A stretch of 64,000 nucleotides of DNA. It comes from an uncultured Candidatus Saccharibacteria bacterium (lineage in GTDB: Bacteria > Patescibacteriota > Saccharimonadia > Saccharimonadales > Saccharimonadaceae). The first letter of the stretch is position 1. Each line of letters begins with the position of its first letter. The notes under the pieces are model-generated. The model did no database searches. It saw only the letters and a list, made by a program, of their open reading frames with translations, and was not told the DNA's origin. The position numbers and the translations under genes were made by a program. The stretch covers positions 63,946 through 127,945 of the forward strand of contig CAOLNK010000001.1 of assembly GCA_948477625.1 (NCBI GenBank). The letters are read 5' to 3'. Positions 4,660-58,157 of the stretch are shown one piece after another.

Positions 4660-5828
4660 AAAATCAAATTACCATCGCAAAACATAACCTCAAGCTCGTC
4701 ATGCTCGAATCGGCATTGACGGCAGCTCTGTTATCAATGTCAATCATGACGCCATTTTTCTATTCGATTGGACTCAGCCAGCTCCAGATTTCACAGACGC
4801 AAGTGATTTTCACTGTAGTGATGGTGTTTCTTAATCTCCCTACAGGTTGGCTCGCCGACCGCTTTAGTCGCAAATGGGCTAATGTGATTGGTGATTTTGG
4901 CGTGGCGCTGACTTTTATCGCTTATGCTATGTCACAAAATTTCTTGATGGTTGTCGTTTGTGAGTGCTCTCTAGGTTTCTTTATGGCACTGAGCCAAGGA
5001 GTTGACCAGAGTTTGCTGCGGCACTTCTGTCAGAAAATTAACCCTAGCGAAGATTTCTTCCGTCAGAAAACCGCTCGGCTGAACTGTTGGCATTATGTAG
5101 TAATGCTGGTTTTAGTTTGGCTAGGCGGTCCGATTGGCGCGATTAGTCTCCGCTTGGCGGTTGCGCTCTCTGGCGTTCCATATATTATTGGCGGCATTGC
5201 TAGCCTTATGGTAGCCGATGATAGTAAAAAATTGGTTACCGACAAAAATCCATTCCGCGACATGCTACGAATCGTTGTGAGTAGCTTTCGTAATCAACCC
5301 CTGCGTCTACGTATTTTTACCTATGCTATTGGCCGGGAAATGACGCACGCTGTGATTTGGGTTTTTACACCACTTTTAATTATGGCGGGTGTTCCTCTGG
5401 CGATTGTATCAACCGCTTGGGCACTTAACGCCATGGCAAGCCTACTCGGTGCTCGATTGGCCACTAAATTTGGCTTCAAGCTCAAGGATTGGCAAATCTT
5501 TGCTCTGCCCTTAGCGATAATGGCGGTCAGCATGAGTATCATTGGTATACACCTGAACATTATTACCATTTGGTTCTATTTGTTAATGGGTGTTGTGCAA
5601 GGTTGGACTGGCGCCACATTGATTTCGTTAGTACAGCACTATACGTGCCCCGAAGAACAAACGTCCGTGATCTCTTTAACCAGTATCGTTGGGCGTTTAG
5701 TTTACATCCCCACTAGCTTATTGGTTGGTTGGGTTGGTGACTGGCAATTAGCACGCACCCCTTTGGTGGTCTTGCTGTGCTTTGCCCCAGTTGGGCTATT
5801 CCTGACTTTCCATCTTGCGAGAGAATAG
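4656..5828 (+). CDS. MFS transporter
   Basis: 390 aa with about 11-12 hydrophobic helices and an MFS loop motif (GWLADRFSRKW). The start overlaps the upstream stop (ATGA). Confidence 0.8.
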   Translation: MKNQITIAKHNLKLVMLESALTAALLSMSIMTPFFYSIGLSQLQISQTQVIFTVVMVFLNLPTGWLADRFSRKWANVIGDFGVALTFIAYAMSQNFLMVVVCECSLGFFMALSQGVDQSLLRHFCQKINPSEDFFRQKTARLNCWHYVVMLVLVWLGGPIGAISLRLAVALSGVPYIIGGIASLMVADDSKKLVTDKNPFRDMLRIVVSSFRNQPLRLRIFTYAIGREMTHAVIWVFTPLLIMAGVPLAIVSTAWALNAMASLLGARLATKFGFKLKDWQIFALPLAIMAVSMSIIGIHLNIITIWFYLLMGVVQGWTGATLISLVQHYTCPEEQTSVISLTSIVGRLVYIPTSLLVGWVGDWQLARTPLVVLLCFAPVGLFLTFHLARE

Positions 5829-5835
5829 CTCTGAC

Positions 5836-5861
5836 CCCACAAGTTATTATTGTGGGGTTTT
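5836..5861. terminator. bidirectional terminator hairpin
   Basis: ccccacaa / ttgtgggg stem, with A and T runs on either side. Confidence 0.6.
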
Positions 5862-5870
5862 CATTTCTCT

Positions 5871-6326
5871 AAAAGATCGGCACCGAACCGCGGCGTACCA
5901 AAGGCAGCGGAGGGAGAAACCGTTGTAGCGGTTATTCGGGCCATTCGACGGGTTCACACCAGTAGCATTAAAGTTGAGGTTGTAAGCGCTAGGCGTAGCC
6001 ACGCCGTCATACCGCGTACTAGAGCCACGCGACGACCACCAGTAGCCGTTGATGCCAGCGTTCCAAGACTTACCATCGTTAGGATTGAGGTTCCCGCTGC
6101 GCACGTTACCCCTCACAGTTTCATCAAATAGCCCCGAAGACAAATTCCATGCCATCGCAAAGCGAAAGCAGGTCTAGAAGTTCATTTTATTGATGACAAC
6201 CGTGGTTGCCAGGTGACAAACCTCAGCATATCTCTTGCGATACTGTAGAGGGGAACTTCACGATCTTTTCTGGAGAACCGCCGGCGAGCGGAGGAGTGAG
6301 CTCAAGCTGCCTTTGGTGCCCGTGGA
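5871..6326 (-). repeat. lectin-like cassette copy A (FISUMP/DUF1566-like C-terminal coding segment plus conserved flanks)
   Basis: The core at 5901-6104 encodes VRSG..GYWWSSR..AYNLNF..GFSLRCL. The flanks are shared with copy E: AAAAGATCG at 5871 and CGATCTTTT at 6261, plus a 68-nt block at 6259-6326. There is no SD or convincing start. Confidence 0.7.
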
Positions 6327-6351
6327 TATATGTCCATGTTATAATAATAAC

Positions 6352-6729
6352 ATGGATAAAAGAGTTACTGTTTCGAGTAAAAATGTAAAACTGATTTATG
6401 CTAACCGAATATGCTGTTTCGATAATGAGCAAACAGATATCAAGATTGAGCTCACCAACAAAAAAGAAGATGAGCTAAGGTTAAGTTTTTATTTTAAATA
6501 TTCTAATAGCTCAGAGCCTAAAGTTGACATTCATCCCAATACTAAAGCTGGTATCGACATTAAGCTTACAAACTTCAATAACCCTCTTGGTATGGGACTA
6601 AAAAGACCAATATTAATTGGTAAACTAGACGCAAAGAGTGTGTTCATGCTATTCAATATTTACAAGAACGATGATTCTAACCCTATTCTGGATTTAAGTC
6701 TATATATGGAGAGCTCAAATGTCGGGTAA
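6352..6729 (+). CDS. hypothetical protein (AT-rich cassette gene 1)
   Basis: 125 aa starting at MDKRV, 6 nt after a TATAAT box (leaderless). The segment is visibly AT-rich compared with its neighbours. Confidence 0.5.
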   Translation: MDKRVTVSSKNVKLIYANRICCFDNEQTDIKIELTNKKEDELRLSFYFKYSNSSEPKVDIHPNTKAGIDIKLTNFNNPLGMGLKRPILIGKLDAKSVFMLFNIYKNDDSNPILDLSLYMESSNVG

Positions 6730-7105
6730 AGGTTTCAATACTGACATACAACAAATCAAAACAGACGAAATTTGCGACAATCTGAATGAGAAAATCATTG
6801 CTATTACTGAATCAAAAGCGAGATTAGTCTATCAAAAGTATACCGGTATCCCCACAGCAGGCGCAATGCTATCGGATTTTGGCCTTCTTGTTGCTTTTGC
6901 TACACCTCTCATAACATCCGATTTTAATGGTATCCTGGGGTTTTCACCAGAGGTTTTAAAAGCCTGTTTTATAGTTGCATCGATAGTGTTTGCTTGTAAA
7001 TTTATCGGGTCTACCTTTCGCTATATAACGAAAGGTAGACGAATGAATGAAGAAAGTTTTCTGAAAGAGTTAAAGGGCCAGACAGAAGAGAAAAAGTTAT
7101 CGTAA
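6719..7105 (+). CDS. hypothetical membrane protein (AT-rich cassette gene 2)
   Basis: 128 aa, overlapping gene 1 by 11 nt. It has two hydrophobic helices (FGLLVAFATPLI and CFIVASIVFACKFIG). Confidence 0.5.
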   Translation: MSGKGFNTDIQQIKTDEICDNLNEKIIAITESKARLVYQKYTGIPTAGAMLSDFGLLVAFATPLITSDFNGILGFSPEVLKACFIVASIVFACKFIGSTFRYITKGRRMNEESFLKELKGQTEEKKLS

Positions 7106-7179: not shown

Positions 7180-7268
7180 TGGTGCACCTGACTAGACTCG
7201 AACTAGCACAGCTTAAAATCGCCACTACCACCTCAAGGTAGCGTGTCTACCAATTCCACCACAGGTGC
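7180..7268 (-). tRNA. tRNA-Leu (anticodon GAG), class II long variable arm, CCA encoded
   Basis: Manual cloverleaf: acceptor GCACCTG/CAGGTGC, anticodon loop TTGAGGT, T-loop TTCGAGT. Confidence 0.9.
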
Positions 7269-7448: not shown

Positions 7449-8084
7449 ATGGAAAAAACTATCCAGAAGTTACTGGTCTTGACCGGTATTTTCATTGGCG
7501 CAGCCGTTGCGCTCACTCCACTTACTACTTACGCCGATTCGTCTAGTTGTCGTCCAACTGGCGCGCCGGCTGACCCAGATGAAGTTATCGATGTCAATAC
7601 TGCAGATTACGCCGAAAATGGCAACCAGAATAATACTAATGTCTGCGTCTATGTCGACACCGTTCTTTCACTCGATGCCGCTAATGGTGGTGACAAAATT
7701 ACAATGTATCCCGACATGGTACGTACCGGTCAATTCAACGTCCAGGTGCGTAGTGCTATGCCCTACACTATCTCTCTGAGCGCCGAGGAACCTGAGCTCA
7801 AAGAAGTCACCACCGAAAGCTACTTCATTCCTGCTCGTAGTGAAATTGCTGCCGGCAAGGTGGGTTGGGGAATTCGCAAGGCCAGCCAAACCGAAGGCTA
7901 CACCGCCGTTGCCACTGTACCACAAGTCTTCTTCGACAGTACTACCGATGACAATGGTACCGGTACGGACGTTGCAGATCTTTCCACTTGGCACGCTTTT
8001 GAAATCGGTGTCTCTGTAACCGACAAAGTCCCACAGGGAACTTACGCTACGGAAGTGACAGTTACTGCCGCAGTCAAAGAATAA
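7449..8084 (+). CDS. secreted surface protein, WxL/CscB-C-like (paralog family of 51086 and 52811)
   Basis: It has a signal peptide ending TTYA|DSS, a central WG motif and a C-terminal GTYATEVTVTAAV beta-strand motif. It lies next to a DUF916-like gene. Confidence 0.5.
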   Translation: MEKTIQKLLVLTGIFIGAAVALTPLTTYADSSSCRPTGAPADPDEVIDVNTADYAENGNQNNTNVCVYVDTVLSLDAANGGDKITMYPDMVRTGQFNVQVRSAMPYTISLSAEEPELKEVTTESYFIPARSEIAAGKVGWGIRKASQTEGYTAVATVPQVFFDSTTDDNGTGTDVADLSTWHAFEIGVSVTDKVPQGTYATEVTVTAAVKE

Positions 8085-17044: not shown

Positions 17045-17286
17045 CCACTCTACATGTCTAATACAGTACTAAGGCAGCGGAGGGGGAAACCGAGGTAGCG
17101 CTCGTACGGGCCATTCGACGTGTACACTGTGGAGGCATCGAAGCCGAGGCTGTAACCGCTAGGGATAGCAGAGCCATCATAGCGAGTAGATGACGCCCGC
17201 GACGACCACCCGTAGCCGTTGATGCCAGAGCCCCTGAAGGTAGCACCACTAACACCAGGCAGACTCATGAGCCCGCTGCGCACGAA
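17045..17286 (-). repeat. lectin-like cassette copy B
   Basis: It encodes VRSG..GINGYGWSSR..GFPLRCLSTVLDM*. The 48-nt 3' flank matches copies C and D with one mismatch, and the 5' junction is TTCGTGCGCAGCGGG. Confidence 0.7.
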
Positions 17287-17312
17287 GTAAAGAAACGAGT
17301 TCTGTTCGGGAT

Positions 17313-17339
17313 AAAAGTTGATAGTTACTATCAACTTTT
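17313..17339. promoter_or_regulatory. operator-like perfect palindrome 1 (AAAAGTTGATAG-tta-CTATCAACTTTT)
   Basis: 12-bp arms with a 3-nt centre. It overlaps a TTGATA-17-TATACT promoter-like signal pointing toward copy C. Confidence 0.45.
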
Positions 17340-17370
17340 ATATACTACTCGCCCCCGTTACTATATTCGT

Positions 17371-17395
17371 AAACTTGATAGTAGCTATCAAGTTT
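17371..17395. promoter_or_regulatory. operator-like perfect palindrome 2 (AAACTTGATAG-tag-CTATCAAGTTT)
   Basis: 11-bp arms with the same TTGATAG/CTATCAA core as palindrome 1. The two centres are 57 bp apart. Confidence 0.45.
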
Positions 17396-17400
17396 ACTGT

Positions 17401-17624
17401 TTCGTGCGCAGCGGGCACGTCTATCCAGTTAATACTGCTGGTACTTTCAGGGGCGCTGGCGGCATCTACTGGTCATCGCGAGCTGCTACCTACACCTCGT
17501 CCACTTCGGCTACGGCTTATTATCTGCAAGTTGAGTCGTCTGCTATCAAACCGTCCCACTCCAGCCATCGTTACACCGGTTTCCCCCTCCGCTGCCTTAG
17601 TACTGTATTAGATATGTAGAGTGG
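17401..17624 (+). repeat. lectin-like cassette copy C (identical to D)
   Basis: It encodes (V/M)RSGHVYPVNTAGTFRGAGGIYWSSR...GFPLRCLSTVLDM*. Its 224 nt equal the reverse complement of 28391-28614, checked by eye. Confidence 0.8.
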
Positions 17625-17639
17625 TATAATGTATATACT

Positions 17640-18587
17640 ATGCTAATCGATACACACTGTCATTTACACGACCCCGAATGGTTTACGCCCGAGCAATCGG
17701 AGTTGTTTTTGCAGGAAGCACGCGAAAACGGCGTGCAAAAGATTATCTGTATTGGCACCAATCCGCAGGATTCTTGGGATGCTCGCGACTACGCTAATGC
17801 GCATAATGACGTTTATTGGACTTACGGCATCCACCCCGAATTCTGTAGAAGCCCGAGAGAAGAAAATGTAGACATTTTCTTCCGAGGCGACGCCCAGAAT
17901 ATTGAGCAAAGCGAATTCGCCAGCCAGCCCGAAATGCTAGTGATGCCAGAATTATCGTCTTTTCGGGAATCTCCGGAGGTCAAGGTTACTGATGTTTGTC
18001 AAGAAAGATTAAAAGAGCGGTCAGCTGACCGCGAGGAACGAGAGCCCCGTAAAGACGGGCGCTCGAGTGGGTCTCTCAAGGCAAACGTTAGTAACCTTAA
18101 TAGCAGGTTGGTTGCCATCGGTGAAATCGGCCTCGACTACCATTACGACGGCTACGACCGCACCGCCCAAATTCGCCTTTTCGAGCAAATGCTTCAGCTT
18201 GCGCTCAACCTCAATCTTCCAGTTTCACTCCATATTCGTGAAGCCTTCAGTGACGCACTAGCCATTATCGATAATTTTCCGAAAACTCGTGGCGTGGTTC
18301 ACAGTTTCACTGGTTCTAAGCGCGACCTACGTCAAGCCTTAGAGCGTGGTTTTTACGTTGGTGTCAATGGTCTTTGTACCTACACCACTAACCCTTTACC
18401 CCCACTTGAAAAAATGGTCTTAGAAACCGATGCTCCCTTCTTGACTCCAATTCCGTTCCGTGGTACAATAAATAAACCAGGATATGTTAAAACTATTGCG
18501 ACATATCTCGCGGAAAAATTGGGTGTGGCAGAAGCAAACATAGTGGAGCAAACAACTCAAAATGCGAGAAACATTTTTCAAGTCTAA
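17640..18587 (+). CDS. tatD: TatD family metal-dependent hydrolase (with about 66-aa extra segment)
   Basis: N-terminal DTHCHL motif, plus GIHPE, AIGEIGLDY, HSF and ETDAP. A palindrome-rich extra segment is encoded at about 17850-18105. Confidence 0.85.
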   Translation: MLIDTHCHLHDPEWFTPEQSELFLQEARENGVQKIICIGTNPQDSWDARDYANAHNDVYWTYGIHPEFCRSPREENVDIFFRGDAQNIEQSEFASQPEMLVMPELSSFRESPEVKVTDVCQERLKERSADREEREPRKDGRSSGSLKANVSNLNSRLVAIGEIGLDYHYDGYDRTAQIRLFEQMLQLALNLNLPVSLHIREAFSDALAIIDNFPKTRGVVHSFTGSKRDLRQALERGFYVGVNGLCTYTTNPLPPLEKMVLETDAPFLTPIPFRGTINKPGYVKTIATYLAEKLGVAEANIVEQTTQNARNIFQV

Positions 18588-18686
18588 TCAAACCAGTATG
18601 AGCCGGGCTGAGGCCTACAATTTTTGCACTCCGGCTTCGGTGGAAGTTTATCGTGAGCTGATGGGCGTTGCTCAGGAGATCGAAAC

Positions 18687-19571
18687 ATGCCGTGCGTCAG
18701 TCTAGGTTCACGCAAAATTTACAAGGCCAAAATCATGAAATCCGGCGAAGGCTCAGTCAAGGCCACTGCGCCCGTTTGTGCGGCTGATTTATCGGCTATT
18801 AGTCAAGAAACTGAGAATCTAGTCAATATTGCCACTATTGCTGAAGAGGTTTTGCAATCCGAACAAATCCTCTCTAATCCGCAAACTGTACCGATTACTT
18901 CAGCTGGCGTCAAAGCTCCCAAGCAGCCACTTTACTACAAAGTTCAGTCTAATATTCTACGCCCAGCCCGCGCTAAAGCTTTGCGTCGTGCTGTGGTCAA
19001 AGCAATCAATAGTCCTGCGCACAAGGCCTCCAAAAATACTCATCCCATAAAAACTGATACCCTGCAAGTACTGCTCGACGGCACCAAGGTGCAAATTCGC
19101 GCACATCGGGCACCAGTTTCTCGCGTTGGTCAGAAAATCATCGATACTCCCGCCACCAAGACTCAAAAAACTCCGCGTCACTTCAAAAAGGCCCAAAAAC
19201 TTGCTCAGCGAGCGTCGGAAAGAGTCACTATCACCGCCCGTCAAATGCGCCGTCGTCCCAGTCGTGCTGAGCTTATCAATGCCGAGTCCAAACTTGGCAG
19301 CACCATTTTTGGTCCTGTGCCCACCGGTCATCGTCGCGAATTCTTCCATGACCGTGAGAATGTCTGGATTTGGCACGAAGACTGGCTCGATCACGAACAT
19401 CATGCACGCCAGCTCACCGTGCGCTACGAGGTTCGTCCCTCCGGTGTTTATAAAAAGATTTCCGCTGGCAAATATATCCAGCTCAAGGGCGCCGAGCTCG
19501 ACAACTTCCGCCAAGCCACCAAAGTTTATCTGCATATTATCAAGCAAAAACTCTACGCTCACGCAAAATAA
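18687..19571 (+). CDS. hypothetical basic protein
   Basis: 294-aa ORF with an uncertain start (an internal M at 18735 is possible). It is K/R-rich, and its C-terminal third is better structured. No family recognised. Confidence 0.4.
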   Translation: MPCVSLGSRKIYKAKIMKSGEGSVKATAPVCAADLSAISQETENLVNIATIAEEVLQSEQILSNPQTVPITSAGVKAPKQPLYYKVQSNILRPARAKALRRAVVKAINSPAHKASKNTHPIKTDTLQVLLDGTKVQIRAHRAPVSRVGQKIIDTPATKTQKTPRHFKKAQKLAQRASERVTITARQMRRRPSRAELINAESKLGSTIFGPVPTGHRREFFHDRENVWIWHEDWLDHEHHARQLTVRYEVRPSGVYKKISAGKYIQLKGAELDNFRQATKVYLHIIKQKLYAHAK

Positions 19572-19586
19572 AGTATAATTAGAGTT

Positions 19587-20783
19587 ATGATTTATCTAGA
19601 TCACGCCGCCGCTACTCCAGTTAGCGACAAGGCCCTGGCCGCTATGCAACCGTATTTTACAGAGGAATTTTTCAATCCCTCCGCACCATATCTTCCAGCC
19701 AAGCGCGTGCGCGAGGCTTACGAATCCGCCAAAGACCAAATCGCCCATTGTATTGGCGCAAAAGGTGTCGACCTCGTCATCACGGCGGGTGCCACCGAAT
19801 CGATCAATTTAGCCTTTACTGCGCGTCGTGGCAAATCTCTTGTGCTTGCCACCGAACATACTGCTGTCCTAGAAGCGGCAAAAACTGGAGATTATGACTT
19901 AATCTTGGTTGACAAAACTGGCTTAATTCAGCTTGATGACCTGAGCCAAAAACTCACCGACGAGGTCGACTTCATCTCAATTTCGCTCGCCAATAATGAG
20001 CTTGGTACGATTCAACCTTTAGCGGACATTGCTGAGATGATTCGTCAAACCCGTCAAGACCGGCTCGCGCGGGGAATCACTACGCCACTTTATTTTCATT
20101 CCGACGCTTCACAAGCCCTTAATCTCATGGATATTAGTGTGGCGCGCCTTGGGGTAGATTTGCTCACGCTCAACGCCGCTAAGTGTGGCGGTCCCAAAGG
20201 TGTTGGTGCGCTCTATCTCGCACATGGTGTCAAAATCTCGCCGCTTGCTGTGGGCGGCGGGCAAGAGCGTGGCCTGCGTTCGGGTACCGAAAATGTCCCG
20301 GGAGTAATTGGTTTTGCCACGGCCGCATCCGATGCTAAAACACACATCTCCTATCATCGCAAGCAATACCAAGAAATGGCCAAAGTTCTTCGTCAAGAAC
20401 TCGCACGTACCCCCATTGTAGCACAAGATATTGAAAAAGTCAAGCATAATCTTAATTTAGAAATATCACAACCACTTTTCCTTGGTAATCCTAAACACCA
20501 GTTGGCGAATTTTGTGCCGGTGTGTCTTCCGGGCATTGATGCCGAGCGTCTGATTTATAAGTTTGAGCAAGAGGGGATTTTAGTCTCCACCGGTGCCGCC
20601 TGTGCCGCAAACAAGGGAAGCAAATCACACGTTTTGGCTGCTATTGGTTTGAGCGATACTGAAATTTCCGGGTCGCTCCGCATCTCTCTCGGTAGCACCA
20701 ACAACCTCGGCCAAATCAAACAGGCTGCACAGATCATTGTCCGTATCGTAGTAGAAGAATATCTCCGGAGTGCGCATGCCTAA
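19587..20783 (+). CDS. cysteine desulfurase (NifS/IscS family, PLP-dependent)
   Basis: MIYLDHAATTP-like N-terminus, TAGATESINL, a PLP-lysine region (LNAAKCGGPKGVGALY) and RSGTEN. It is adjacent to mnmA. Confidence 0.85.
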   Translation: MIYLDHAAATPVSDKALAAMQPYFTEEFFNPSAPYLPAKRVREAYESAKDQIAHCIGAKGVDLVITAGATESINLAFTARRGKSLVLATEHTAVLEAAKTGDYDLILVDKTGLIQLDDLSQKLTDEVDFISISLANNELGTIQPLADIAEMIRQTRQDRLARGITTPLYFHSDASQALNLMDISVARLGVDLLTLNAAKCGGPKGVGALYLAHGVKISPLAVGGGQERGLRSGTENVPGVIGFATAASDAKTHISYHRKQYQEMAKVLRQELARTPIVAQDIEKVKHNLNLEISQPLFLGNPKHQLANFVPVCLPGIDAERLIYKFEQEGILVSTGAACAANKGSKSHVLAAIGLSDTEISGSLRISLGSTNNLGQIKQAAQIIVRIVVEEYLRSAHA

Positions 20784-21804
20784 AGTCTACCTCGGTATGT
20801 CTGGTGGCGTGGACTCGTCGGTTTCGGCCGTTCTCCTCAAGGAGCAGGGCTACGACGTCACTGGTGTCTATATGAAAAACTGGTCCAAAGACCTCCCCGG
20901 TATGAAATGCCCCTGGGCGGAAGACCTGGCCGATGCTAAGCGCGTGGCGGTGCAACTCGACCTTGATTTTGAAGTTTGGGATTTTGAGGCTGATTACAAA
21001 CAAAAAGTGGTTGATTATATGCTGGCCGAGTTCCAAAAAGGTCGCACGCCCAACCCCGATATTATGTGTAACGAGCAAATCAAGTTCAAACTTTTTTACG
21101 ACCGTGCTCTCCAAAACGGCGCTGACTTTATCGCGACTGGGCATTATGCTCGTACCGACGGCCAAAATCTCCTGCGTGCCGTGGACGAGAATAAGGATCA
21201 GACCTATTTTCTCTATCGCATGAGCAACGCTGCCACTGCCAAAACTATTTTCCCTGTGGGTGGCATGACTAAGCCCGAGGTAAAAGCGCTTGCAGCCGAG
21301 AAAGGCCTCGACGTCGCCACCAAAAAAGAGTCTATGGGAGTTTGTTTTGTGGGCGAAGTTGGTATGAAAGATTTTCTCAAAGAATTTCTAGACACTCATC
21401 CCGGCGAAATTCGCGATGTTGAAACTAATAAAATCCTAGGCTATCACGACGGTGCGATTTTCTACACTATTGGTCAGCGCCACGGTCTCTATCTGGGTGG
21501 CGGATTACCCTATTATGTGGTGAAAAAAGACCTTGCTCAGAATATCGTCTACGTTTCACGCAATCTTAACGACGCTAACCTCTGGAGCGACCGTCTGCAG
21601 CTGGAAAATATTCATCTTCGCACTAATCTTCCCGCTTCTGGCCAAGTCCAAGTGCGCCCGCGCCATCGCGCCCCACTAGTACCAGCAAAGTTGGAAGGCG
21701 AGGTTTTGATATTCGCCACCCCCATCAAGCGCCCTGCCGCTGGCCAATCTGCCGTTTTCTACGACGGCGAAGTCTGCCTGGGTGGCGGCATCATCGCTGA
21801 TTAG
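20776..21804 (+). CDS. mnmA: tRNA 2-thiouridine(34) synthase MnmA
   Basis: PP-loop (GMSGGVDSS), plus NPDIMCN and ATGHYAR. It overlaps the desulfurase gene's 3' end. Confidence 0.9.
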   Translation: MPKVYLGMSGGVDSSVSAVLLKEQGYDVTGVYMKNWSKDLPGMKCPWAEDLADAKRVAVQLDLDFEVWDFEADYKQKVVDYMLAEFQKGRTPNPDIMCNEQIKFKLFYDRALQNGADFIATGHYARTDGQNLLRAVDENKDQTYFLYRMSNAATAKTIFPVGGMTKPEVKALAAEKGLDVATKKESMGVCFVGEVGMKDFLKEFLDTHPGEIRDVETNKILGYHDGAIFYTIGQRHGLYLGGGLPYYVVKKDLAQNIVYVSRNLNDANLWSDRLQLENIHLRTNLPASGQVQVRPRHRAPLVPAKLEGEVLIFATPIKRPAAGQSAVFYDGEVCLGGGIIAD

Positions 21805-21827
21805 TTATCTGTGGTATAATATATTCT

Positions 21828-23726
21828 ATGAATGCAAACGAAATCCGCCAAAAATTTTTAGATTTTCAAGTTAAACACGGACATAAAGTTATCCCGCCTG
21901 CACCACTCGTGCTCGAAAATGACCCCACTACCCTCTTTACTGGTTCTGGCATGCAACCGTTATTGCCATATTTGCTCGGCCAGCCGCACCCCGAAGGTAC
22001 TCGCCTTACAGATAGCCAGCCATCTATGCGCTTGCAGGATATCGAAGACGTTGGTGACCCGCGCCATACTACAGTGTTTGAGATGCTGGGCAACTGGTCT
22101 TTGGGCGATTATTTCAAAAAGGAACAAATCGAGAATTATTTCGAGTTTCTTACCAAAGAAATTGGCCTCGACCCCGAGCGGATTTACGTCACTTGTTTTA
22201 TTGGCAACGAGAAATACGGCATCCCCAAAGATACCGAAGCTGCAGCAATCTGGCAAGAAGTTTTTGCGAAAGCTGGCGTCGAGGCTAAAATTGCCGAAAT
22301 CGGCTCCGCTAAAGTCGGCGACAAACGGGGAATTAAGCCCGGTGAGCGGATTTTCTTCTACGATGACAAAGAGAACTGGTGGAGCCGAGGCGGTGGCATT
22401 GAAACTACTCCTTTGGGCGATCCTTGCGGTCCTGATTCCGAAGTTTTCTATGACTTTGGTGAGGATAAGCAGGACGTGGAAAAATATGGCCAAGCTCACC
22501 CAGCTTCGGATGGTGCGCGGTTTATGGAAATTGGCAACCAAGTCTTTATGCAGTACAAACGCAACGAAGATGGTACCTTCTCTGAACTTGAGCACAAGAA
22601 TGTCGACTTTGGTGGTGGTTTGGAGCGTCTAGCAGCCGCAGCTATAGGTAGTTTTGACGTATTCAAGATTTCTTTAATGGCGCCAATTATTGCCAAACTT
22701 GAAGAAATTTCGCACAAAAGTTATGATACTAATACTGACGAAATGCGTATCATTGCCGACCACTTGCGTGGGGCTTATCTCTTAGCCGCCCAAGGTTTGC
22801 AACCTAGCAACAAGGCTCAAGGTTATGCTTTGCGTCGTTTGGTGCGTCGCGCTGTATTGAGAGCTCTCGACCTTGGCATCGGTCAAGAATTTCTTGCGCA
22901 AATCATCCCAGTGATTGCCGAAAATTACACCGAACTGTCTGATGATATCTTGCCAAACCGTGCTCAAGTGTTGGATGTGCTCACCAAAGAGGAAGTCGCT
23001 TTCCGCAAAACCATCAACAAGGGCGTCAAAGAATTGCAAAAAATGGCCCAAGCCGACACCACGATTGACGGTCAAGAATTGTTTAAATTGCAAGATACCT
23101 ACGGTTTCCCACTCGAGCTCAGCGTAGAAGAAGTTTACAAAATGGGCTTGAATTTGTCTAAAAACTATCAAGATGAGTTTGAGGCAGCATTGAATGAACA
23201 GCGCGAGCGCAGCAAGACCGCCTCCAAAGGCATGTTCAAAGGTGGCCTCTCCGATACGTCCGACCAAACCGTTAAATACCATACTGCTTGCCATCTCTTG
23301 CTAGCGGCTCTGCAGCAAGAAATTGACCCAAGCATTGAACAAAAGGGAAGCAACCTCACTCCGGAGCGTCTACGTTTTGACTTCAACATCGATCATAAGC
23401 TGACTCCTGAGGAATTAGCCAAAGTCGAGGCACGTGTTAATCAGTGGATTGAAGCTGATTTACCCGTAATCTTTGCTGAATACGACAAAGATTACGCCTT
23501 TGATGCGCTCCACGCGCACGGTAGTTTTCGCGACCGTTATCCAGATCGTGTTACGGTATATACTATTGGTGAGGGTGATACACCGGAAAATATCCAAAAT
23601 CCAGTTTCGATTGAAATTTGTGGCGGCCCGCACGTTACGCATACCGATGAGCTCGGTAAATTTAAGATTACCAAAGAAGAATCCTCCAGCGCCGGCGTCC
23701 GCCGCATCAAAGCGATATTGGAATAA
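21828..23726 (+). CDS. alaS: alanine--tRNA ligase (short form, no C-Ala domain)
   Basis: Class II AlaRS N-terminal motifs (FTGSGMQP and MLGNWSLGDYFK) and an editing-domain HxxxH...CGGPHV. At 632 aa it is shorter than the usual ~870 aa. Confidence 0.9.
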   Translation: MNANEIRQKFLDFQVKHGHKVIPPAPLVLENDPTTLFTGSGMQPLLPYLLGQPHPEGTRLTDSQPSMRLQDIEDVGDPRHTTVFEMLGNWSLGDYFKKEQIENYFEFLTKEIGLDPERIYVTCFIGNEKYGIPKDTEAAAIWQEVFAKAGVEAKIAEIGSAKVGDKRGIKPGERIFFYDDKENWWSRGGGIETTPLGDPCGPDSEVFYDFGEDKQDVEKYGQAHPASDGARFMEIGNQVFMQYKRNEDGTFSELEHKNVDFGGGLERLAAAAIGSFDVFKISLMAPIIAKLEEISHKSYDTNTDEMRIIADHLRGAYLLAAQGLQPSNKAQGYALRRLVRRAVLRALDLGIGQEFLAQIIPVIAENYTELSDDILPNRAQVLDVLTKEEVAFRKTINKGVKELQKMAQADTTIDGQELFKLQDTYGFPLELSVEEVYKMGLNLSKNYQDEFEAALNEQRERSKTASKGMFKGGLSDTSDQTVKYHTACHLLLAALQQEIDPSIEQKGSNLTPERLRFDFNIDHKLTPEELAKVEARVNQWIEADLPVIFAEYDKDYAFDALHAHGSFRDRYPDRVTVYTIGEGDTPENIQNPVSIEICGGPHVTHTDELGKFKITKEESSSAGVRRIKAILE

Positions 23727-23794
23727 TCCCATCAAAAAAGCAGGAGGCTTGACGATTTAGGGTTTTAGCGTTAGAATGGGAATATAAATTTGGA

Positions 23795-23884
23795 TTAGTT
23801 GTCCTTAGTCTTGTGGCTGAGGACAACTTTTACTTTAGATAATTCAGATAACTGAACATCCAAAGACAAAGCAATCTTCTTCAT
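23795..23884 (-). CDS. 29-codon ORF with strong SD; resembles an RHH/CopG N-terminus (possible antitoxin remnant)
   Basis: TAAGGAGAGG lies 5 nt before the ATG. The peptide is MKKIALSLDVQLSELSKVKVVLSHKTKDN, and the ORF ends inside a terminator hairpin. Confidence 0.2.
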   Translation of the reverse strand: MKKIALSLDVQLSELSKVKVVLSHKTKDN

Positions 23885-24026
23885 GCTCACCTCTCCTTAC
23901 TCTTAAAACTACTATTGGTATCGACCAAAAGTTACGTCTAGCCCCTGCCTACATCTATCCTATCATATTTGTTGTAAAAAGTACAACACTTTATCTCGTG
24001 TGCAAGGAGGAAAAGCGCTAATATTA

Positions 24027-24055
24027 TTGACAAAAAGCATAATCCGTGCTAAAAT
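24027..24055 (+). promoter_or_regulatory. consensus promoter P3 (TTGACA-17-TGcTAAAAT)
   Basis: The sequence class is shared with P1, P2 and P4. It drives a ~240-nt hairpin-rich leader. Confidence 0.6.
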
Positions 24056-24299
24056 GGAAGTATGGCATGAAGAATTATGTCATCGTATAACTAAAGTTTG
24101 ATTAGATCGCCATTTTACTGGTACCAGTATTTTTATGCTCACGAGACATAAAAATACCCCGACTTTAGTGTTTAATAACCTACTCAAGCGGCTTTGCCCT
24201 CCGTTTTTACTAAACAGTGTGGATCACCAGTTTAGCGAAAATAGAGGGCAAAGTTCAACAAAATTTGCCCAAAAATACACATCCCAAGGAGGAAATAAA

Positions 24300-24989
24300 A
24301 TGGGTAAATTTACCAATCTTGAGATTCACACCGAACCGGAAACTACGCTTTTCCCACAGGAAGTAAATGCTATCCTATCCGTAATTAATCAGGTGCTGGT
24401 AAGCCTTAGCGACCACTATCCTGTACGGGGAACGTTTATTTTGGACGGGCAGAAAACGGGCGAAGAAGCAAGATGTATCCTGCGCTTCGATTTAGAGGAC
24501 GGACCGGCGCCTTATACTATTGAGGCTACTAAGGACACCTCATCAGATGAATTGGCAGAAAGGGCGATTAACAGTGTTTTGTCTTGGCCGGAAAAATGGA
24601 CACCGTATCCGTATACCACCGAAGACGAGCAGGCCGGCCAATTTTCCAGCAAGGTGTATCGGCGGTCGGAGTTAAGAGTATTAGTCTTAAATACCACGCA
24701 CGGGCGCTTTCTGGCCAGTTGCTACATTGCCTTTTCTGAAGATACGCAAAACAAAAATATCGCTGTACTTAGTGCCGTAGCGGAAGTGCTTGCCCAGATG
24801 GGAAAAGAGGACGAAGGCTTGCAACAGTCAGTTCATCAACTCCGCAATTACTTTACTCCGGTCGATAAAGAGATTTCAACCCTGATTAATCGTCTATTTG
24901 ATGAGTGTAGTATACCGGAGCTGAGAGCATGGCGCGACTGGCATGAACCGGCAAACACGTCCGGCGATTTGACCTTATTTTTTGAGTAG
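24300..24989 (+). CDS. hypothetical cytoplasmic protein (229 aa)
   Basis: The start is chosen at MGKFTNLE, 7 nt after AAGGAGG. The in-frame upstream ATG at 24135 lacks an SD. No family recognised. Confidence 0.5.
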   Translation: MGKFTNLEIHTEPETTLFPQEVNAILSVINQVLVSLSDHYPVRGTFILDGQKTGEEARCILRFDLEDGPAPYTIEATKDTSSDELAERAINSVLSWPEKWTPYPYTTEDEQAGQFSSKVYRRSELRVLVLNTTHGRFLASCYIAFSEDTQNKNIAVLSAVAEVLAQMGKEDEGLQQSVHQLRNYFTPVDKEISTLINRLFDECSIPELRAWRDWHEPANTSGDLTLFFE

Positions 24990-24997
24990 GTATCGTA

Positions 24998-25030
24998 AAC
25001 TGTTCAGCCGTGAGGTTGAGCAGTTTTTTT
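24998..25030. terminator. terminator between convergent genes
   Basis: aactgttca / tgagcagtt stem followed by T7. It overlaps the stop of the minus-strand MFS gene. Confidence 0.55.
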
Positions 25031-26279
25031 ATTCGTCCGCTAGGCGCTCATCATAGCGCATTCGTGAAGCCGAATGGCGCACACTTCGGCGATGATGCCG
25101 CAGATGTACCAAATAGAATGCCACTCCAATCTGCACTACTGTAATAATCGACGACGCGCCCAGAATAAAACCAATCCCAAAATCATACATTACTCCGCAG
25201 AGCAACATACCCATCGCTTCGCCCGCAAAACTCATCACATGCTTAATTGTGCTGTAGCTCAGCTGATGTCGATTGTCTACCAGGTTGATATAACAGCCAT
25301 CAGTCACATCCTCGTAGGCGGTCGAAATCAGAATTGACCACGTAAATGCAATCATCGAAATGAACGGGTCTTCCGCCACAATTGCGATAATATATGCCAG
25401 CAGGCGAATGCCAAATTTGAGAGTTAGTGTAAGATAATCATTCTTGGGTGTAAAATATTTCAGCGCCAGCACGCCCACCACATCCGAGAGGATTCCCACA
25501 ATCAGCAGATAATTCGTGGCCGTCCCAGCCGAAAACTCCAAGTAATTTGTGAGCACCAGCATTTTTAACCCTAGCGCTGCCGCAAATGACATCGCCGCAA
25601 GAAACGCATAAATCATGTAGCAAACCTGCAACTTACTCTTGAGCACATATTTCAAAATCGAATCGTTCCGTGGCGTCTCTTTTTCGGTTGGCTTCACTTT
25701 GAAGCTCGACATCGTGAGGACGGCCAGACTTAGAAAAATTACTGAAATTACCAGACAGGCATTATAATCAATCAGGCTACCGAACACCGTTTGCCCTAGC
25801 ATCACGCCACCCACCAGCACACCTATGTCGCGAAACCAATATTCCACCAACTTGCGCTTGCTATAGATTTCGTTATTTTTAATTACAACCGTGATTAATG
25901 GGTAGACACTCGCCACAATTAGATAACTTGTAATTACATCCACTACTGTGCAGATACTCATCGCCCAAAAATTTACACTGGCGTCTAGCCCGCGCAAGAC
26001 CAGCAAATCTACCAATTTTATCCCGAGAACGATGGTCATAAAGGCCTTGAGGTGGCGCATTTTCAGGCGATACCCCACAAAAATCACGCCCACTACACTC
26101 AGCATCAAGCCAACACTAGTCATGATACTTACGTCCGCGGCGGTAAAACCATTGTCCTGCAACCAAAGTTGGCGAAAATTCTCCCACAGCCCCACTGAGG
26201 TACTAAAAAACGCCAACATCGCCAGAATCTTGCGCTCTAGCATGGTTTTCTTGGATGGACGCCGACTGGTTTTCTTCAT
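25029..26279 (-). CDS. MFS-type transporter
   Basis: 416 aa with about 12 hydrophobic helices and a basic N-terminal segment. Confidence 0.7.
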   Translation of the reverse strand: MKKTSRRPSKKTMLERKILAMLAFFSTSVGLWENFRQLWLQDNGFTAADVSIMTSVGLMLSVVGVIFVGYRLKMRHLKAFMTIVLGIKLVDLLVLRGLDASVNFWAMSICTVVDVITSYLIVASVYPLITVVIKNNEIYSKRKLVEYWFRDIGVLVGGVMLGQTVFGSLIDYNACLVISVIFLSLAVLTMSSFKVKPTEKETPRNDSILKYVLKSKLQVCYMIYAFLAAMSFAAALGLKMLVLTNYLEFSAGTATNYLLIVGILSDVVGVLALKYFTPKNDYLTLTLKFGIRLLAYIIAIVAEDPFISMIAFTWSILISTAYEDVTDGCYINLVDNRHQLSYSTIKHVMSFAGEAMGMLLCGVMYDFGIGFILGASSIITVVQIGVAFYLVHLRHHRRSVRHSASRMRYDERLADE

Positions 26280-26416
26280 ATTTCTTCAAAAATGTTTGTT
26301 TGAATGACCTTTTGCCACCATTTTAGCATAAAAGTTATGGTTGTAACAGGTTTTTTATACAACAAAAACTCCCCAGTCCGCCATCTTTCGATTTTGAACT
26401 GGGGTTTCTTGCCTGC

Positions 26417-27139
26417 TTATCTTTCCGGTGCTTCCTGTATACCCAGTGTAAATATCCAGAACCGTAAATCGGGATAGCACTCCAGCTCCCTCAGATTATA
26501 CCAGATCTGGTCTTTCTCCCAGAGCGTATTCAGGGTGTGCTGAATATGTCTGAAAAGGCAGGAGCAAAAGAAAGTATCCTGCCACTCTCTGGCGCCACTG
26601 AAAGTAATCCGGATTTCACCAGTAGTTCGCCGGACGTCCTGTTTGCTCTTATCACCGTTACAAGAATCATCAGTGTAGTCGGTCAGCAGGATATCATACG
26701 GTATCCGAATGCCACCATACCAGTGAGTAATGCCACAGTCCTTCAGCTTTTCCCAGATAACATCCAAAAAATCAGGCAGACATTCCATCTCGTCAAGCTC
26801 CTCCAGTAACGATTTCGTTATCTCATTATCGACACCTTTCGGGTTGATATTCTGCAAAGCGTCACGGATATCGTCAATGCTGGCGGTCCCAGTTGCATTG
26901 ATGCTGGGGCATATCTTCAGCATCTGCATTTTAACAGGAGCAAAAGACCCTCCACCTTTGTTGCTCTCGATGTCCAGCTGATAATAGGGTTTGTGTTCCT
27001 TGTCCCGCTGAAACTCTATGCAGCAGCGCCAGCCGTTCGGCAGATTTTCACGATAATCACACACCAGTTTTTCAATACCGCGCATAATCTTCGCATTCAA
27101 CTCCGGGGTACACTGAGATACGTAATTGTTTACTTTCAT
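26417..27139 (-). CDS. hypothetical Cys-rich cytoplasmic protein (240 aa)
   Basis: An AGGAGGAAAC SD lies upstream of the ATG at 27139. It contains 12 Cys, with no signal peptide or TM. No family recognised. Confidence 0.5.
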   Translation of the reverse strand: MKVNNYVSQCTPELNAKIMRGIEKLVCDYRENLPNGWRCCIEFQRDKEHKPYYQLDIESNKGGGSFAPVKMQMLKICPSINATGTASIDDIRDALQNINPKGVDNEITKSLLEELDEMECLPDFLDVIWEKLKDCGITHWYGGIRIPYDILLTDYTDDSCNGDKSKQDVRRTTGEIRITFSGAREWQDTFFCSCLFRHIQHTLNTLWEKDQIWYNLRELECYPDLRFWIFTLGIQEAPER

Positions 27140-27170
27140 TTTTTGTTTCCTCCTAAAGAAAAATCTCTAC

Positions 27171-27294
27171 GGTTCACCGTAGGATATAAGCCCACCATTT
27201 ACATAGCATGCAAAAATAGGCTTATATCCTACGGTTCACCGTAGGATATAAGCCCACCATTTACATAGCATGCAAAAATAGGCTTATATCCTAC
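27171..27294. repeat. two perfect tandem 62-bp repeats, each a 14-bp-stem hairpin, in the leader of gene 26417-27139
   Basis: The unit is ggttcaccGTAGGATATAAGCC-26nt-GGCTTATATCCTAC, present twice (27171-27232 and 27233-27294). Confidence 0.9.
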
Positions 27295-27380
27295 GACGAC
27301 TTATAAGATTCTAAGGAAAAAACGTCATTCAAGTAGGCCTTCAAGGTGCTTGATAGGGAATCTCTATACCCTATAACCTC

Positions 27381-27409
27381 ATTATAGCACACATAATTAA
27401 AAAAGTCAA
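27381..27409 (-). promoter_or_regulatory. consensus promoter (TTGACT-17-TGcTATAAT) for gene 26417-27139
   Basis: The reverse complement reads ttgacttttttaattatgtgtgctataat. It gives a ~235-nt leader that contains the tandem repeats. Confidence 0.6.
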
Positions 27410-27535
27410 TAGTAGTATAGTAAAATCTTGATAATTAGCAAAAAATATGATAAGCTAATAAGTATGAGCTGGTGGGTGTTACCTTAAAATTTGGCTAAAA
27501 TCCACCGCAAAAATCTAAGAAGGGTGGTGTAAACC

Positions 27536-28342
27536 ATGAAAAATGTTATGGACTATGGCAAAGCGAGAGGTATGACGCTTGTCGGGAAGTATTTACCCAA
27601 ACTCAACCCATTCCAAAGTATAGACTTAATCGGAACAATGGAAGAATGGGGGCAAGTACGCTACAAGTATGGGGACACTATGATACATCGCATCGATTAC
27701 CCAATTGGCCATGCGCAGGTTAAGCAAAATGCAGTTCAAGGTACGAACGGCTTTGCGGAGAGTATTCCGGAGCTGATTTCTGCTGTACGCAAACAGGGAA
27801 ATTCCGGAGTTGTGCTTATTGCGCAGCCTACCCATCCGTCTCCACCACGTTATCTCTATTTGGGAGGGTTTAATATTCTATTTTGTTTAGGCAGTCATGT
27901 GGTAATTGAGCTTGTTGGTAAAGCCTTTGACGGGCATGAGCTGACACAAGGACTGGGCTATCACGAACAGTACTGTCTGAATTGGGATGACATTCCGTTT
28001 GTAATGTCCAGGAATAATTTGGTACGGCGTGCGACCTCAATGAAATGGATAACAGTCAATGAATATCAGATTCAACGTCATAATAGAATACAGTTTTTGG
28101 CCGAATCTTGTCATTATCCGTTGGGGGAGGTGGAGTCAAATGTGCCAGAGATATTACCCTTATTAGACGACTCTGCTCTGAGGCTATTGTTGGATGATAT
28201 TGTGGTTGAACTGCGCGGGAAGAGAGTTTTGCTGGAATATGACAAAATGAGACTGTTTGGTGTGCAGGGAAACGTCGTGGAGCATAATGGTCAAATTGAA
28301 ATTCAGCCTTGGGAGATTTTTTGCCCCGAACGCTGGTCGTAA
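27536..28342 (+). CDS. hypothetical protein (268 aa)
   Basis: ORF with a GAAGGGTGG SD-like sequence upstream. It is divergent from 26417-27139. No confident family assignment. Confidence 0.5.
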   Translation: MKNVMDYGKARGMTLVGKYLPKLNPFQSIDLIGTMEEWGQVRYKYGDTMIHRIDYPIGHAQVKQNAVQGTNGFAESIPELISAVRKQGNSGVVLIAQPTHPSPPRYLYLGGFNILFCLGSHVVIELVGKAFDGHELTQGLGYHEQYCLNWDDIPFVMSRNNLVRRATSMKWITVNEYQIQRHNRIQFLAESCHYPLGEVESNVPEILPLLDDSALRLLLDDIVVELRGKRVLLEYDKMRLFGVQGNVVEHNGQIEIQPWEIFCPERWS

Positions 28343-28352
28343 TTTCAGTATT

Positions 28353-28391
28353 GAAAGGATTCGCTATTTTATATTACAGCGAATCCTTTTC
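28353..28391. terminator. bidirectional terminator
   Basis: gaaaggattcgct / agcgaatcctttt stem. Confidence 0.7.
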
Positions 28392-28614
28392 CACTCTACA
28401 TATCTAATACAGTACTAAGGCAGCGGAGGGGGAAACCGGTGTAACGATGGCTGGAGTGGGACGGTTTGATAGCAGACGACTCAACTTGCAGATAATAAGC
28501 CGTAGCCGAAGTGGACGAGGTGTAGGTAGCAGCTCGCGATGACCAGTAGATGCCGCCAGCGCCCCTGAAAGTACCAGCAGTATTAACTGGATAGACGTGC
28601 CCGCTGCGCACGAA
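28391..28614 (-). repeat. lectin-like cassette copy D (identical to C, inverted)
   Basis: It is the exact reverse complement of 17401-17624. It lies 58 nt downstream of the DUF2726-like gene on the same strand. Confidence 0.8.
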
Positions 28615-57630: not shown

Positions 57631-57662
57631 AACAACTCCTGCCTGTGCAGGAGTTGTTTTTT
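57631..57662 (+). terminator. rho-independent terminator after the tRNA pair
   Basis: aacaactcctgc / gcaggagttgtt stem followed by a T run. Confidence 0.7.
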
Positions 57663-57664
57663 GC

Positions 57665-58112
57665 AAAAGATCGGCACCCACCGCGGATGTACAGAAGGCA
57701 GCGGAGGGGGAGACCGTTGTAGCGATCGTACGGACCATACGACGGGCGCGACTCAGTAGCATTAAACTCAAACCAGTAAGCCAAGGTAGACGAAGTCGGA
57801 GAGGTACGCGACGACCACTCGTAACCAATGTAGCCAGCGAGCCTAAAAGTACCAGCAGCGGTGGCCGGATGTACATACCCGCTGCGCACGAAGCATCCGT
57901 ACCGCGCACCTTCATCTGAGTTCGGGTGACAACTGATGACAAAATACCACAGTCATGGGTAAAGAGGCTTATTTGCAAGTATAATAACCATAATTATTAC
58001 TGTTCTATCCTCTCGTTTGCTCTCGCCAAACCTCAAGGCCAGCCTCACGATCTTTTTTCGGAAACCGCTGGTGGGCGGAGGAGTGAGCTCGGCTACCTTT
58101 GGTGTCCATGGA
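57665..58112 (-). repeat. lectin-like cassette copy E with A-type flanks
   Basis: The core at 57695-57892 encodes VRSGYVHP..GYEWSSR..GLPLRCL. AAAAGATCG lies at 57665 and CGATCTTTT at 58048, and the 67-nt block at 58046-58112 is about 82% identical to 6259-6326. Confidence 0.7.
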
Positions 58113-58157
58113 CGCTTATCCACAAAATCATTGTAACACGATGTTATAATATAGCTT

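Follow-up and report, generated by a model that had tools for sequence, protein, structure and literature searches.

What are the five short cassettes that recur in this stretch of a Saccharibacteria chromosome, each of which encodes only the end of a lectin-like domain between two conserved junctions? The stretch is a 64-kb window of an uncultured Candidatus Saccharibacteria bacterium (contig CAOLNK010000001.1, positions 63,946 to 127,945; "the window" is this whole stretch of DNA throughout), and an earlier note made from its letters took the five copies, A to E, together as silent donors for gene conversion into an expressed adhesin. We propose instead, with a probability of roughly 0.88, that all five are parts of a diversity-generating retroelement (DGR) on the chromosome of a Saccharibacteria lineage from the mouse gut, in which template repeats (TRs) supply sequence to variable repeats (VRs). 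To our knowledge, DGRs are the sole natural system of targeted protein hypermutation in prokaryotes, and they are usually described as compact cassettes with one template beside a reverse transcriptase (RT) and few complete target genes. Membership of the DGR class is well supported here, and what is new is the architecture, with multiple remote templates, a non-Avd accessory protein, tens of recipients that have no gene, templates that have been rewritten, and rearrangements mediated by the repeats.

The five paired copies and their conserved junctions are borne out by exact motif counts and by shuffling. One junction motif, CGTGCGCAGCGGG, is present five times in the window, always exactly, where chance predicts 1.24 with up to two mismatches allowed, and the other, CCCTCCGCTGCCTT, is also present in five exact copies (expectation 0.30, with none of 100 shuffles reaching five). 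The motif pairs delimit A (5901-6105, minus strand), B (17071-17284, minus), C (17403-17598, plus), D (28417-28612, minus) and E (57695-57890, minus), and each copy translates in one frame to VRSG...WSSR...G(F/L)xLRCL. C and D are the same sequence over 224 nt, with 17401-17624 being the reverse complement of 28391-28614. None of the five has a usable start, and the reported lack of starts and Shine-Dalgarno (SD) motifs holds well beyond the window. The copies are not equivalent, however, because alignment of their flanks separates A and E from B, C and D. Common to A and E are a conserved block of about 70 nt situated about 230 nt upstream and a 3' element, GCCGCGG..GGTGCCGATCTTTT, in place of which B, C and D run into AGTACTGTATTAGAYATGTAG. 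Copy A contains 41 adenines and the other copies 26-32, it encodes 13 Asn residues, and the family varies at the positions where copy A carries the Asn codons AAC or AAT, a pattern from which we suspected that copy A is the template repeat of a DGR.

Transfer that alters adenines and nothing else is seen in TR/VR pairs that include relatives of the window, which are referred to here by handles such as L003. In a single genome, the TR of L013 and the RT-adjacent VR of L003 differ at 11 of 41 adenine positions and at none of 159-162 others, with no gaps (p 8e-9). Their homology begins exactly at CGTGCGCAGCGGG and stops at CTCCGCTGCCTTAGT, and the junction motifs picked out from the window alone are thus the boundaries of TR/VR homology. 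Copy A of the window is related in the same manner to the gyrA-adjacent VR of L125, where 10 of 28 adenines and none of 123 other positions differ over the 3' 151 columns (p 1e-8). The 5' 60 columns of that VR derive from another template class, itself present in L125, and judged by this alignment the pattern is the one that successive 3'-anchored homing events from two templates would be expected to produce. When the four closest TR/VR pairs are pooled, 38% of adenine sites differ compared with 2-7% of C, G and T sites, and the family-wide entropy at template-adenine positions is 1.62 and 1.53 at codon positions one and two, respectively, relative to 0.89 and 0.79 elsewhere.

As judged from alignment, folding and covariation, A and E are template-bearing structured RNA genes, and not silent coding cassettes. 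Unit A (5833..6347, minus strand) is a complete stand-alone gene of this kind when aligned with 13 homologous units, and it runs from a -10-like box (TATTAT/TATAAC) through a 5' hairpin, a scaffold, the template repeat and a 3' scaffold to a terminator hairpin. The span of 5871-6326 given in the earlier note falls within this unit and takes in more than the cassette itself. The 5' hairpin ATGGACATATATCCAC (6322..6337, minus; family form GTGGAyA..TCCAyGG) is conserved in position and varies in sequence across units. In the 5' scaffold domain that follows (6106..6321, minus), helices H1-H2 include the invariant GAGCTCACTCCTCCGC, the segment AAAGATCGTGAAG occupies 6256-6268, and there are also a hairpin that covaries and has CCACGG as its loop and a three-way junction formed by GAAGTTC/GAACTTC. 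Beyond the template repeat (5901..6105, minus), the 3' scaffold TGGTACGCCGCGGTTCGGTGCCGATCTTTT (5871..5900, minus) has a terminator-like score and is invariant in 14 units, and within it CGATCTTT is predicted to pair with the upstream AAAGATCG in a 9-bp helix that encloses the template. The complementarity of the GCAGCGG and CCGCTGC junction cores, pointed out earlier, is real and corresponds to a predicted RNA pairing, one that is invariant and hence gives no evidence from covariation. A further pairing, of an upstream GGCACC with a downstream GGTGCC, was considered and set aside, as by eye the other units are neither complementary nor covarying there. The hairpin CCCCACAA..TTGTGGGG downstream of unit A (5835..5857) is terminator-like on the plus strand and probably ends the convergent transporter gene at 4656-5828.

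Unit E (57634..58135, minus strand) is a second template-type RNA gene, with the scaffold and covariation of unit A. Its parts are a -10-like TACAAT (58130-58135), a 5' hairpin (58106-58123), the scaffold (57891-58105), the cassette (57695-57890), a terminator-like 3' scaffold (57665-57694) and a hairpin (57634-57655). One layout of -10-like box, 5' hairpin, invariant core, variable helices, template and 3' element is common to all 14 A/E-type units, which come from at least six genomes. RNAalifold applied to the 14 units gives 69 pairs, 22 of them with compensatory changes, and covariation is seen in six helices. Within the scaffold, 94.1% of the cells of its 40 pairs are paired, and compensatory changes occur in 20 of these pairs, compared with 11.7±1.8 in shuffled alignments (none of 500 reaches 20) and 4-8 in slid controls. 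Rfam reports only tRNAs in the window at the gathering threshold, and unit A has no match there at E<=1. Copy E itself, with 26 adenines, has lost most of the template Asn codons (compare HVNPTNTAGTFRNAGNI..HGPNNRYNG in the TR of L092) and looks like a template that has been rewritten. In L110, which is 98.8% identical to the window, E carries a 4-nt CAAC insertion that shifts the frame, together with 14 substitutions in the 5' 60 nt or so of the cassette, at template-Asn codons, and the scaffold around it differs at just 2 nt; the frameshift argues that E is not constrained as a coding sequence.

The enzyme that such templates call for is encoded in relatives. L003 contains a 426-residue open reading frame (ORF) with IGNLTSQLLSNIF...YVDD (the IGNLTSQ...YVDD motifs), which matches Pfam RVT_1 (E 8.8e-10), and its best PDB relative is 8ub7_A, the Bordetella phage bRT, at E 3.8e-22, with Drt2, retron and group II RTs following at about 5e-5. 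The VR of the L013/L003 pair lies about 1 kb from this gene. The RT is found in L003, in L127 and in the species that L002 belongs to, and the order at the locus in relatives is def-fmt-DUF5663-accessory ORF-RT-CdiA_C-VR-gyrA-gyrB. In another Saccharibacteria species (L112, L113 and L116) the scaffold RNA is directly downstream of the RT and adjoins a full-length target of 606 residues, and this placement ties the RNA to the enzyme. L112 has the canonical layout of a 339-residue accessory ORF, the RT, the TR RNA and the 606-residue target. The RT loci P0133 and P0129 were considered as the RT of the window's genome and rejected, being from other species with no link found to that genome, and they are the source of the canonical layout and of the full-length target. 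We infer that the window's own genome encodes an RT. The RT is always preceded by an ORF of 332-340 residues that shares 8 nt with the start of the RT gene (L003 552-1574, L112 8989-10008, L126 8989-10008 and L127 9010-10008), and the L112 and L003 versions are 70% identical; this ORF is a candidate for a DGR accessory protein of a non-Avd type.

The 606-residue target indicates the protein from which the cassettes might descend. It has a signal or transmembrane segment, its C-terminal end reads ...ICPKNWHLPISGTQYNGTSGSFYYLLNKYGL...PLSFVRSG...GHPIRCLAY*, and it contains the motifs WMTQNL and ICPKNWHLP (CPxxWxLP). Its matches to TIGR02145 (E 8e-6, 26.6 bits with a cutoff of 41.65) and PF09603 (E 0.048, 14.4 bits with a cutoff of 33.9) are both below the curated thresholds. 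The proposal that the cassettes encode the C-terminal part of a FISUMP-type domain is therefore sustained by this relative and by a precomputed PF09603 match in one 152-residue homologue (P0291), and not by the cassette peptides, for which neither Pfam nor NCBIfam gives a match even at E<=10. At the RT/gyrA site of the window's clade, the VR ends a 5'-truncated ORF of about 120 residues that is open only back to ...ICPKGWMLPTAG... and has no start upstream, and the AlphaFold model of the longest form, a 121-residue ORF of the MLPTAG type, is poor (pLDDT 44). Full-length FISUMP-like surface paralogues of 414-416 residues are present in L079 (3263-4513, plus) and L091 (2226-3470, minus), with a C-terminus (..NAPLYFVGADY..VAVRCV*) that is not of the cassette type. 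We also note that an orphan VR unit lies tail to tail directly downstream of each of these paralogues.

Copies B, C and D belong to a large family of VR-type units without a gene body. A scan of one genome per species found such units in more than 97 stretches, nearly all from uncultured Saccharibacteria metagenome-assembled genomes (MAGs), with dozens of copies per genome. The window itself is assigned to mouse-gut metagenomes by exact matches of its proteins. We recorded 173 VR-type and 20 TR-type units overall, distributed as 73 and 3 in CAYXCA, 38 and 4 in CASXXK, 37 and 7 in CARYFM, 22 and 4 in CAMUBZ, and 3 and 2 in the window, all of these totals being lower bounds with 104-219 kb of each genome covered and detection inclusive. 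A search of 5.8 billion proteins returned 117 homologues of 69-135 residues, which are without domains, have unrelated N-termini, and are conserved only between (Y)FVRSG and LRCLSTVLD/GM*. Unit B (17045..17287, minus strand) illustrates the organisation, with the 5' sequence TTCGTGCGCAGCGG, a 180-nt interior, the adenine-free GGTTTCCCCCTCCGCTGCCTT and a VR-specific tail, AGTACTGTATTAGACATGTAGAGTGG (17045-17070). Unit C (17401..17624, plus) is head to head with B and is the same as unit D (28391..28614, minus), which is followed by a hairpin with a 12-bp stem.

The ends of these units behave differently from their interiors. The first 11 nt and the last 35 nt or so have close to zero entropy at every codon position, and the interior is rich in synonymous change. 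The VR-only tail AGTACTGTATTAGAYATGTAG, which follows the shared adenine-free GGTTTCCCCCTCCGCTGCCTT, shows no change at any codon position across 171 copies, and from these alignments the unit ends are conserved as DNA, in the manner of a cis-acting element. The canonical site for initiation of mutagenic homing (IMH) consists of a shared GC-rich segment and a 21-bp VR-specific element (PMC3240598). By this comparison the 21-nt tail would act as the IMH, the shared segment here not being strictly GC-only. The coding pattern is equally regular, as 169 of 173 units, in 17 length classes, have a length that is a multiple of three, none contains a stop, and the other frames are stop-free in only 0-42 of the 169. 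At template positions other than adenine, the entropy is 1.34 at the third codon position relative to 0.89 and 0.79 at the first and second, and the earlier remark on synonymous changes between A and B extends to the whole family, with third positions being the most variable at conserved residues. Upstream of the 173 units nothing is conserved past CTTC, one has an SD-like motif, and 21 have an in-frame ATG.

We suggest the following scheme. Units A and E would be self-contained non-coding RNA genes, in which the 5' scaffold and the short 3' element pair around the TR (AAAGAUCG/CGAUCUUU), and which would yield discrete RNAs of about 450-500 nt, from 6335 to 5871 and from 58123 to 57665, that end in GAUCUUUU. 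A DGR-type RT encoded elsewhere on the chromosome would copy the TR RNA into cDNA with misincorporation opposite adenines, and the cDNA would then replace the matching stretch of a VR. The junction motifs would never mutate because they are adenine-free or nearly so, and the 21-nt tail AGTACTGTATTAGAYATGTAG would take the part of the IMH in marking the recipient. B, C and D are proposed to be VR-type recipient sites whose target-gene body has been lost or was never present, and they may still be undergoing rewriting. The ancestral target would have been a surface protein with a signal peptide and a FISUMP-like C-type-lectin-like domain at its end, the cassette corresponding to the final 65 residues or so. 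The VR unit would have multiplied in the clade to dozens of dispersed orphan copies. Dispersed repeats with identical ends would lead to homologous exchange, and hence to mosaic cassettes, TR/VR hybrids and inversions such as the flip between C and D.

Several observations weigh against this scheme. A scan for YxDD and tblastn searches with the L003 RT, gyrA and the accessory ORF find no RT in the 64-kb window, and the def-fmt-DUF5663 block that is syntenic with the RT is missing from it as well. The accessory ORF cannot be recognised as Avd, with no similarity in Pfam, NCBIfam or the PDB. B, C and D are not adenine-only products of A or E, there being 35/162 and 44/160 mismatches at positions other than adenine, and most of the 173 orphan units are 30-90 non-adenine mismatches or gap columns away from every sampled template, with about a dozen lying close to one. 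Most orphans may come from unsampled or extinct template classes combined with recombination, or selection may act on the orphans themselves. Several independent samples have the same B, C and E, with no hypervariation at the level of the consensus; the sole sample that differs is L110, at E, and that a template-type unit is mutated there is unlike canonical TRs. Finally, hairpins are not enriched after the VR tail: the mean DNA minimum free energy of the 70 nt that follow is -5.62, compared with -5.74 for random genomic 70-mers, and in the window a strong hairpin follows B and D and none follows C.

The rival that survives best is the one first offered for this locus, in which gene conversion copies promoter-less donors, comparable to pilS or vls cassettes, into a single expressed gene for a lectin-like adhesin, and diversity stems mainly from recombination. 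We regard it as unlikely, although exchange between cassettes is real. At the NusB/RNase III site, flanks that differ by less than 1% between strains enclose wholly different cassettes, and the swap is bounded exactly by both motifs. The mosaicism that the earlier note looked to population data to reveal is present, in that the interior of window copy B is composed of segments from cassettes at this other locus in sister strains, with nt 1-60 found exactly in L117-120 and nt 75-180 (106 nt, one mismatch) in L121-123. Crossovers within cassettes are evident in reciprocal hybrids, where L002 3872-4059 (minus strand) joins a template-type 5' scaffold to a VR-type tail, and P0240 joins a target-type N-terminal extension (..ICPRGWQLPTAG..) to a template-type 3' tail, as would be expected from crossovers between TRs and VRs. 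The class of cassette at the RT/gyrA-adjacent site also differs between strains, and the open frames of the family and their lack of starts and SD motifs are equally what silent donors should have. No full-length gene with a cassette-type C-terminus was found in the clade among 5.8 billion proteins, however (117 and 153 homologues, the longest match being 158 residues), a result that weakens the donor-cassette model by the note's own standard, and the clade's sole full-length paralogue, in L079 and L091, ends differently. The adenine-only differences, the RT and the template RNAs point to a retroelement as the generator of variation, and A and E are RNA genes, E tolerating the 4-nt frameshift in L110. 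Gene conversion stands as a secondary process of exchange between cassettes, and the primary diversifier, the RT-based DGR, had been missed. A combination of the two is conceivable, and we offer it tentatively as somewhat less improbable than the donor model on its own, in which dispersed template RNAs feed the DGR and the orphan VRs are an archive of diversified lectin-domain ends that are shuffled among themselves and into the RT/gyrA-adjacent expression site.

Exchange also appears to have inverted DNA. The segment of about 11.2 kb between the inverted identical copies C and D (17401..28614) occurs in either orientation among independent assemblies from the mouse gut that are otherwise 100% identical, as L101, L103 and L106 join window positions 31375 to 28391 to positions 17401 to 21587 at 100% identity, and L100, L102 and L104 keep the order of the window. 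This is either an inversion polymorphism mediated by the repeats or a recurrent mis-join at the 224-bp repeat. A DUF2726 ORF (28673-29188, minus) that lies directly upstream of D adjoins TatD instead in the three inverted assemblies. Gene order shifts at cassettes elsewhere too (L124 relative to L118, and L113 relative to L112), and contigs end near them, with L114 and L115 stopping about 1.5 kb past the RT and L127 stopping 131 nt short of the VR; the cassette repeats fragment and rearrange Saccharibacteria MAGs.

A second rival treats the units as mobile DNA resembling miniature inverted-repeat transposable elements, or as pseudogene debris, with no part in diversification, a head-to-head pair being an element of about 500 bp whose terminal inverted repeats (CTAATACAGTACTAAGGCAGCGGAGGGGGAAACC...) are 34 bp long. 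Such an element would be consistent with the dozens of intergenic copies dispersed over a genome of about 1 Mb, and with the arrangement of neighbours, since the head-to-head orientation accounts for 58 of 76 neighbouring pairs and the invariant tails then point outwards like terminal inverted repeats. The 5' truncation points differ in some copies, and multiplication of the units is unexplained by the DGR, as the tail is absent from the template RNAs. Nevertheless, neither such an element nor debris is expected to keep a stop-free interior, an intact frame and variation structured by codons, and by eye no target-site duplication surrounds the B/C pair. Single units are common, perfect relationships to templates with differences at adenines alone are seen, and at a fixed site it is the internal motifs, not the unit ends, that limit replacement; we consider this reading improbable. 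A third rival, a family of small hypervariable proteins of 65-125 residues translated from conserved GTG or nearby starts, is the least probable of all, because although in-frame, stop-free units, a third-position excess that implies protein-level constraint at some time in their history, and annotation of ORFs of 69-158 residues by gene callers all speak for it, SD-like motifs and in-frame ATGs are scarce and upstream sequences unrelated, the cassette covers only the C-terminal part of a lectin-like domain, the longest form is modelled poorly (pLDDT 44), orphans can take over their frame and synonymous patterns from in-frame templates with no selection acting on them, and the STVLDM* tail shows DNA-level conservation and lacks synonymous change.

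Two other readings of the arrangement were rejected. A spliced or intron-interrupted gene and a programmed frameshift are both set aside because the upstream sequences of the copies are unrelated. The idea that the B/C pair is an invertible promoter switch finds no support in its 113-nt spacer (17288..17400), which has AT-rich hairpins at 17314-17338 and 17371-17395 and in which a single promoter-like site is weak and has a terminator-like hairpin after it, nor in the family, where many neighbouring pairs are just 16-18 nt apart.

The DGR reading can be set against systems that are already described. As in the BPP-1 DGR (avd-TR-brt, with the target mtd), transfer from TR to VR is adenine-specific, a C-type-lectin-like domain has the VR at its 3' end, an adenine-free GC-rich segment common to TR and VR is followed by a VR-specific element of about 21 nt, structured RNA flanks the template with a duplex spanning the TR, and the RT is closest to 8ub7_A. 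Duplexes of this topology, which join sequences up- and downstream of the TR, have been described for 207 DGRs (10.1101/2023.10.23.563531). Unlike BPP-1, there are 3-7 scattered template RNA genes far from the RT, the main scaffold is 5' of the TR, the accessory protein has 339-340 residues and is not Avd-like by sequence, the recipient sites number from 20 to more than 70 with most lacking a gene body, there is no general downstream hairpin, and some template-type units are themselves mutated. The DGRs of Treponema denticola, Stenotrophomonas and Candidate Phyla Radiation (CPR; Patescibacteria) clade 2 likewise combine one RT with several, sometimes distant, VRs, and they share targets of the DUF1566, FISUMP or CLec type and, for the CPR, a DGR-enriched host group (PMC5758913, PMC6642488, PMC8144416). 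In published surveys the maxima are eight targets in all and seven non-adjacent ones, CPR members have mostly a single target, and the TR is beside the RT; some DGRs have 2-6 TRs with many VRs that lie inside repeat proteins, and CPR targets are often without recognisable domains. In published multi-target DGRs every target is in a gene, whereas here there are tens of orphan sites, several template classes and mosaic use of templates. The literature searched contains no description of dispersed template RNA genes or of orphan VR families, and the Nature Microbiology survey of CPR DGRs lies outside it, so an earlier mention is possible.

Neisseria pilE/pilS and Borrelia vlsE are silent-cassette systems, and the units resemble them in having promoter-less, 5'-truncated cassettes with conserved ends, variable interiors and segmental non-allelic exchange. 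They differ in that no intact expression locus was found here, new variation comes from reverse transcription, and the cassettes lie among housekeeping genes and cause inversions. The 606-residue parent shares motifs with FISUMP (Fib_succ_major) proteins and matches their models below the curated cutoffs, and the cassettes alone do not match them.

If the DGR reading is correct, independent structured RNA genes now make up a family of templates, and a recipient module of homology arms and a 21-nt tag has spread to far more copies than have been reported, without its parent gene, despite a genome with little to spare. The orphans then provide a natural dissection of the minimal requirements of a DGR recipient, and the template units a covariation-supported model of a CPR DGR RNA that works with a non-Avd accessory protein. 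DGR parts can evidently also be dispersed repeats and, as such, give rise to gene conversion and inversions. On the practical side, short-read assemblies of Saccharibacteria break at these units, annotation routinely mistakes them for hypothetical small proteins, and DGR finders that scan solely near an RT would pass over them. The combined scheme, if true, would join retroelement hypermutation to recombination of the pilS kind in an episymbiont of about 1 Mb, with the inversions as a by-product.

Some neighbouring features recur or are of local interest. Small CdiA_C-like (PF18451) ORFs, which might have a part in the system as nucleases, adjoin cassettes, template units and the RT in every relative orientation; they are found in the window at 4231-4659 (plus), where the match scores E 6.8e-5 and is below the cutoff, in L003 (2859-3407, minus), L112 (12054-12350, minus) and L127 (11429-11863, minus), and also in L016, L030, L036, L039, L059, L060, L061, L063 and L068. 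The window has two adjacent secreted or surface-like ORFs at 7449-8084 and 8104-9054 (both plus), the second with weak matches to fn3_5 and to a WxL-interacting domain; the first resembles the N-terminal domain of the 606-residue target by eye, a likeness that tblastn at 1e-4 does not support. The class-A template unit of L013, L026 and L064 begins about 60-90 nt past the 3' end of a tRNA (..GTTCGAGTCTAGTCAGGTGCACCA). In the window a tRNA-Leu (7180-7268) lies about 840 nt from unit A, and the DUF6864 ORF (6235-6729) and the 128-residue ORF (6719-7105) that separate the two may be an insertion. Lastly, a complete template-type unit is carried by L024, a 2.7-kb contig labelled Sangeribacter sp. 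(a Muribaculaceae MAG), which is probably a Saccharibacteria contig that was mis-binned into a mouse-gut Bacteroidota MAG.

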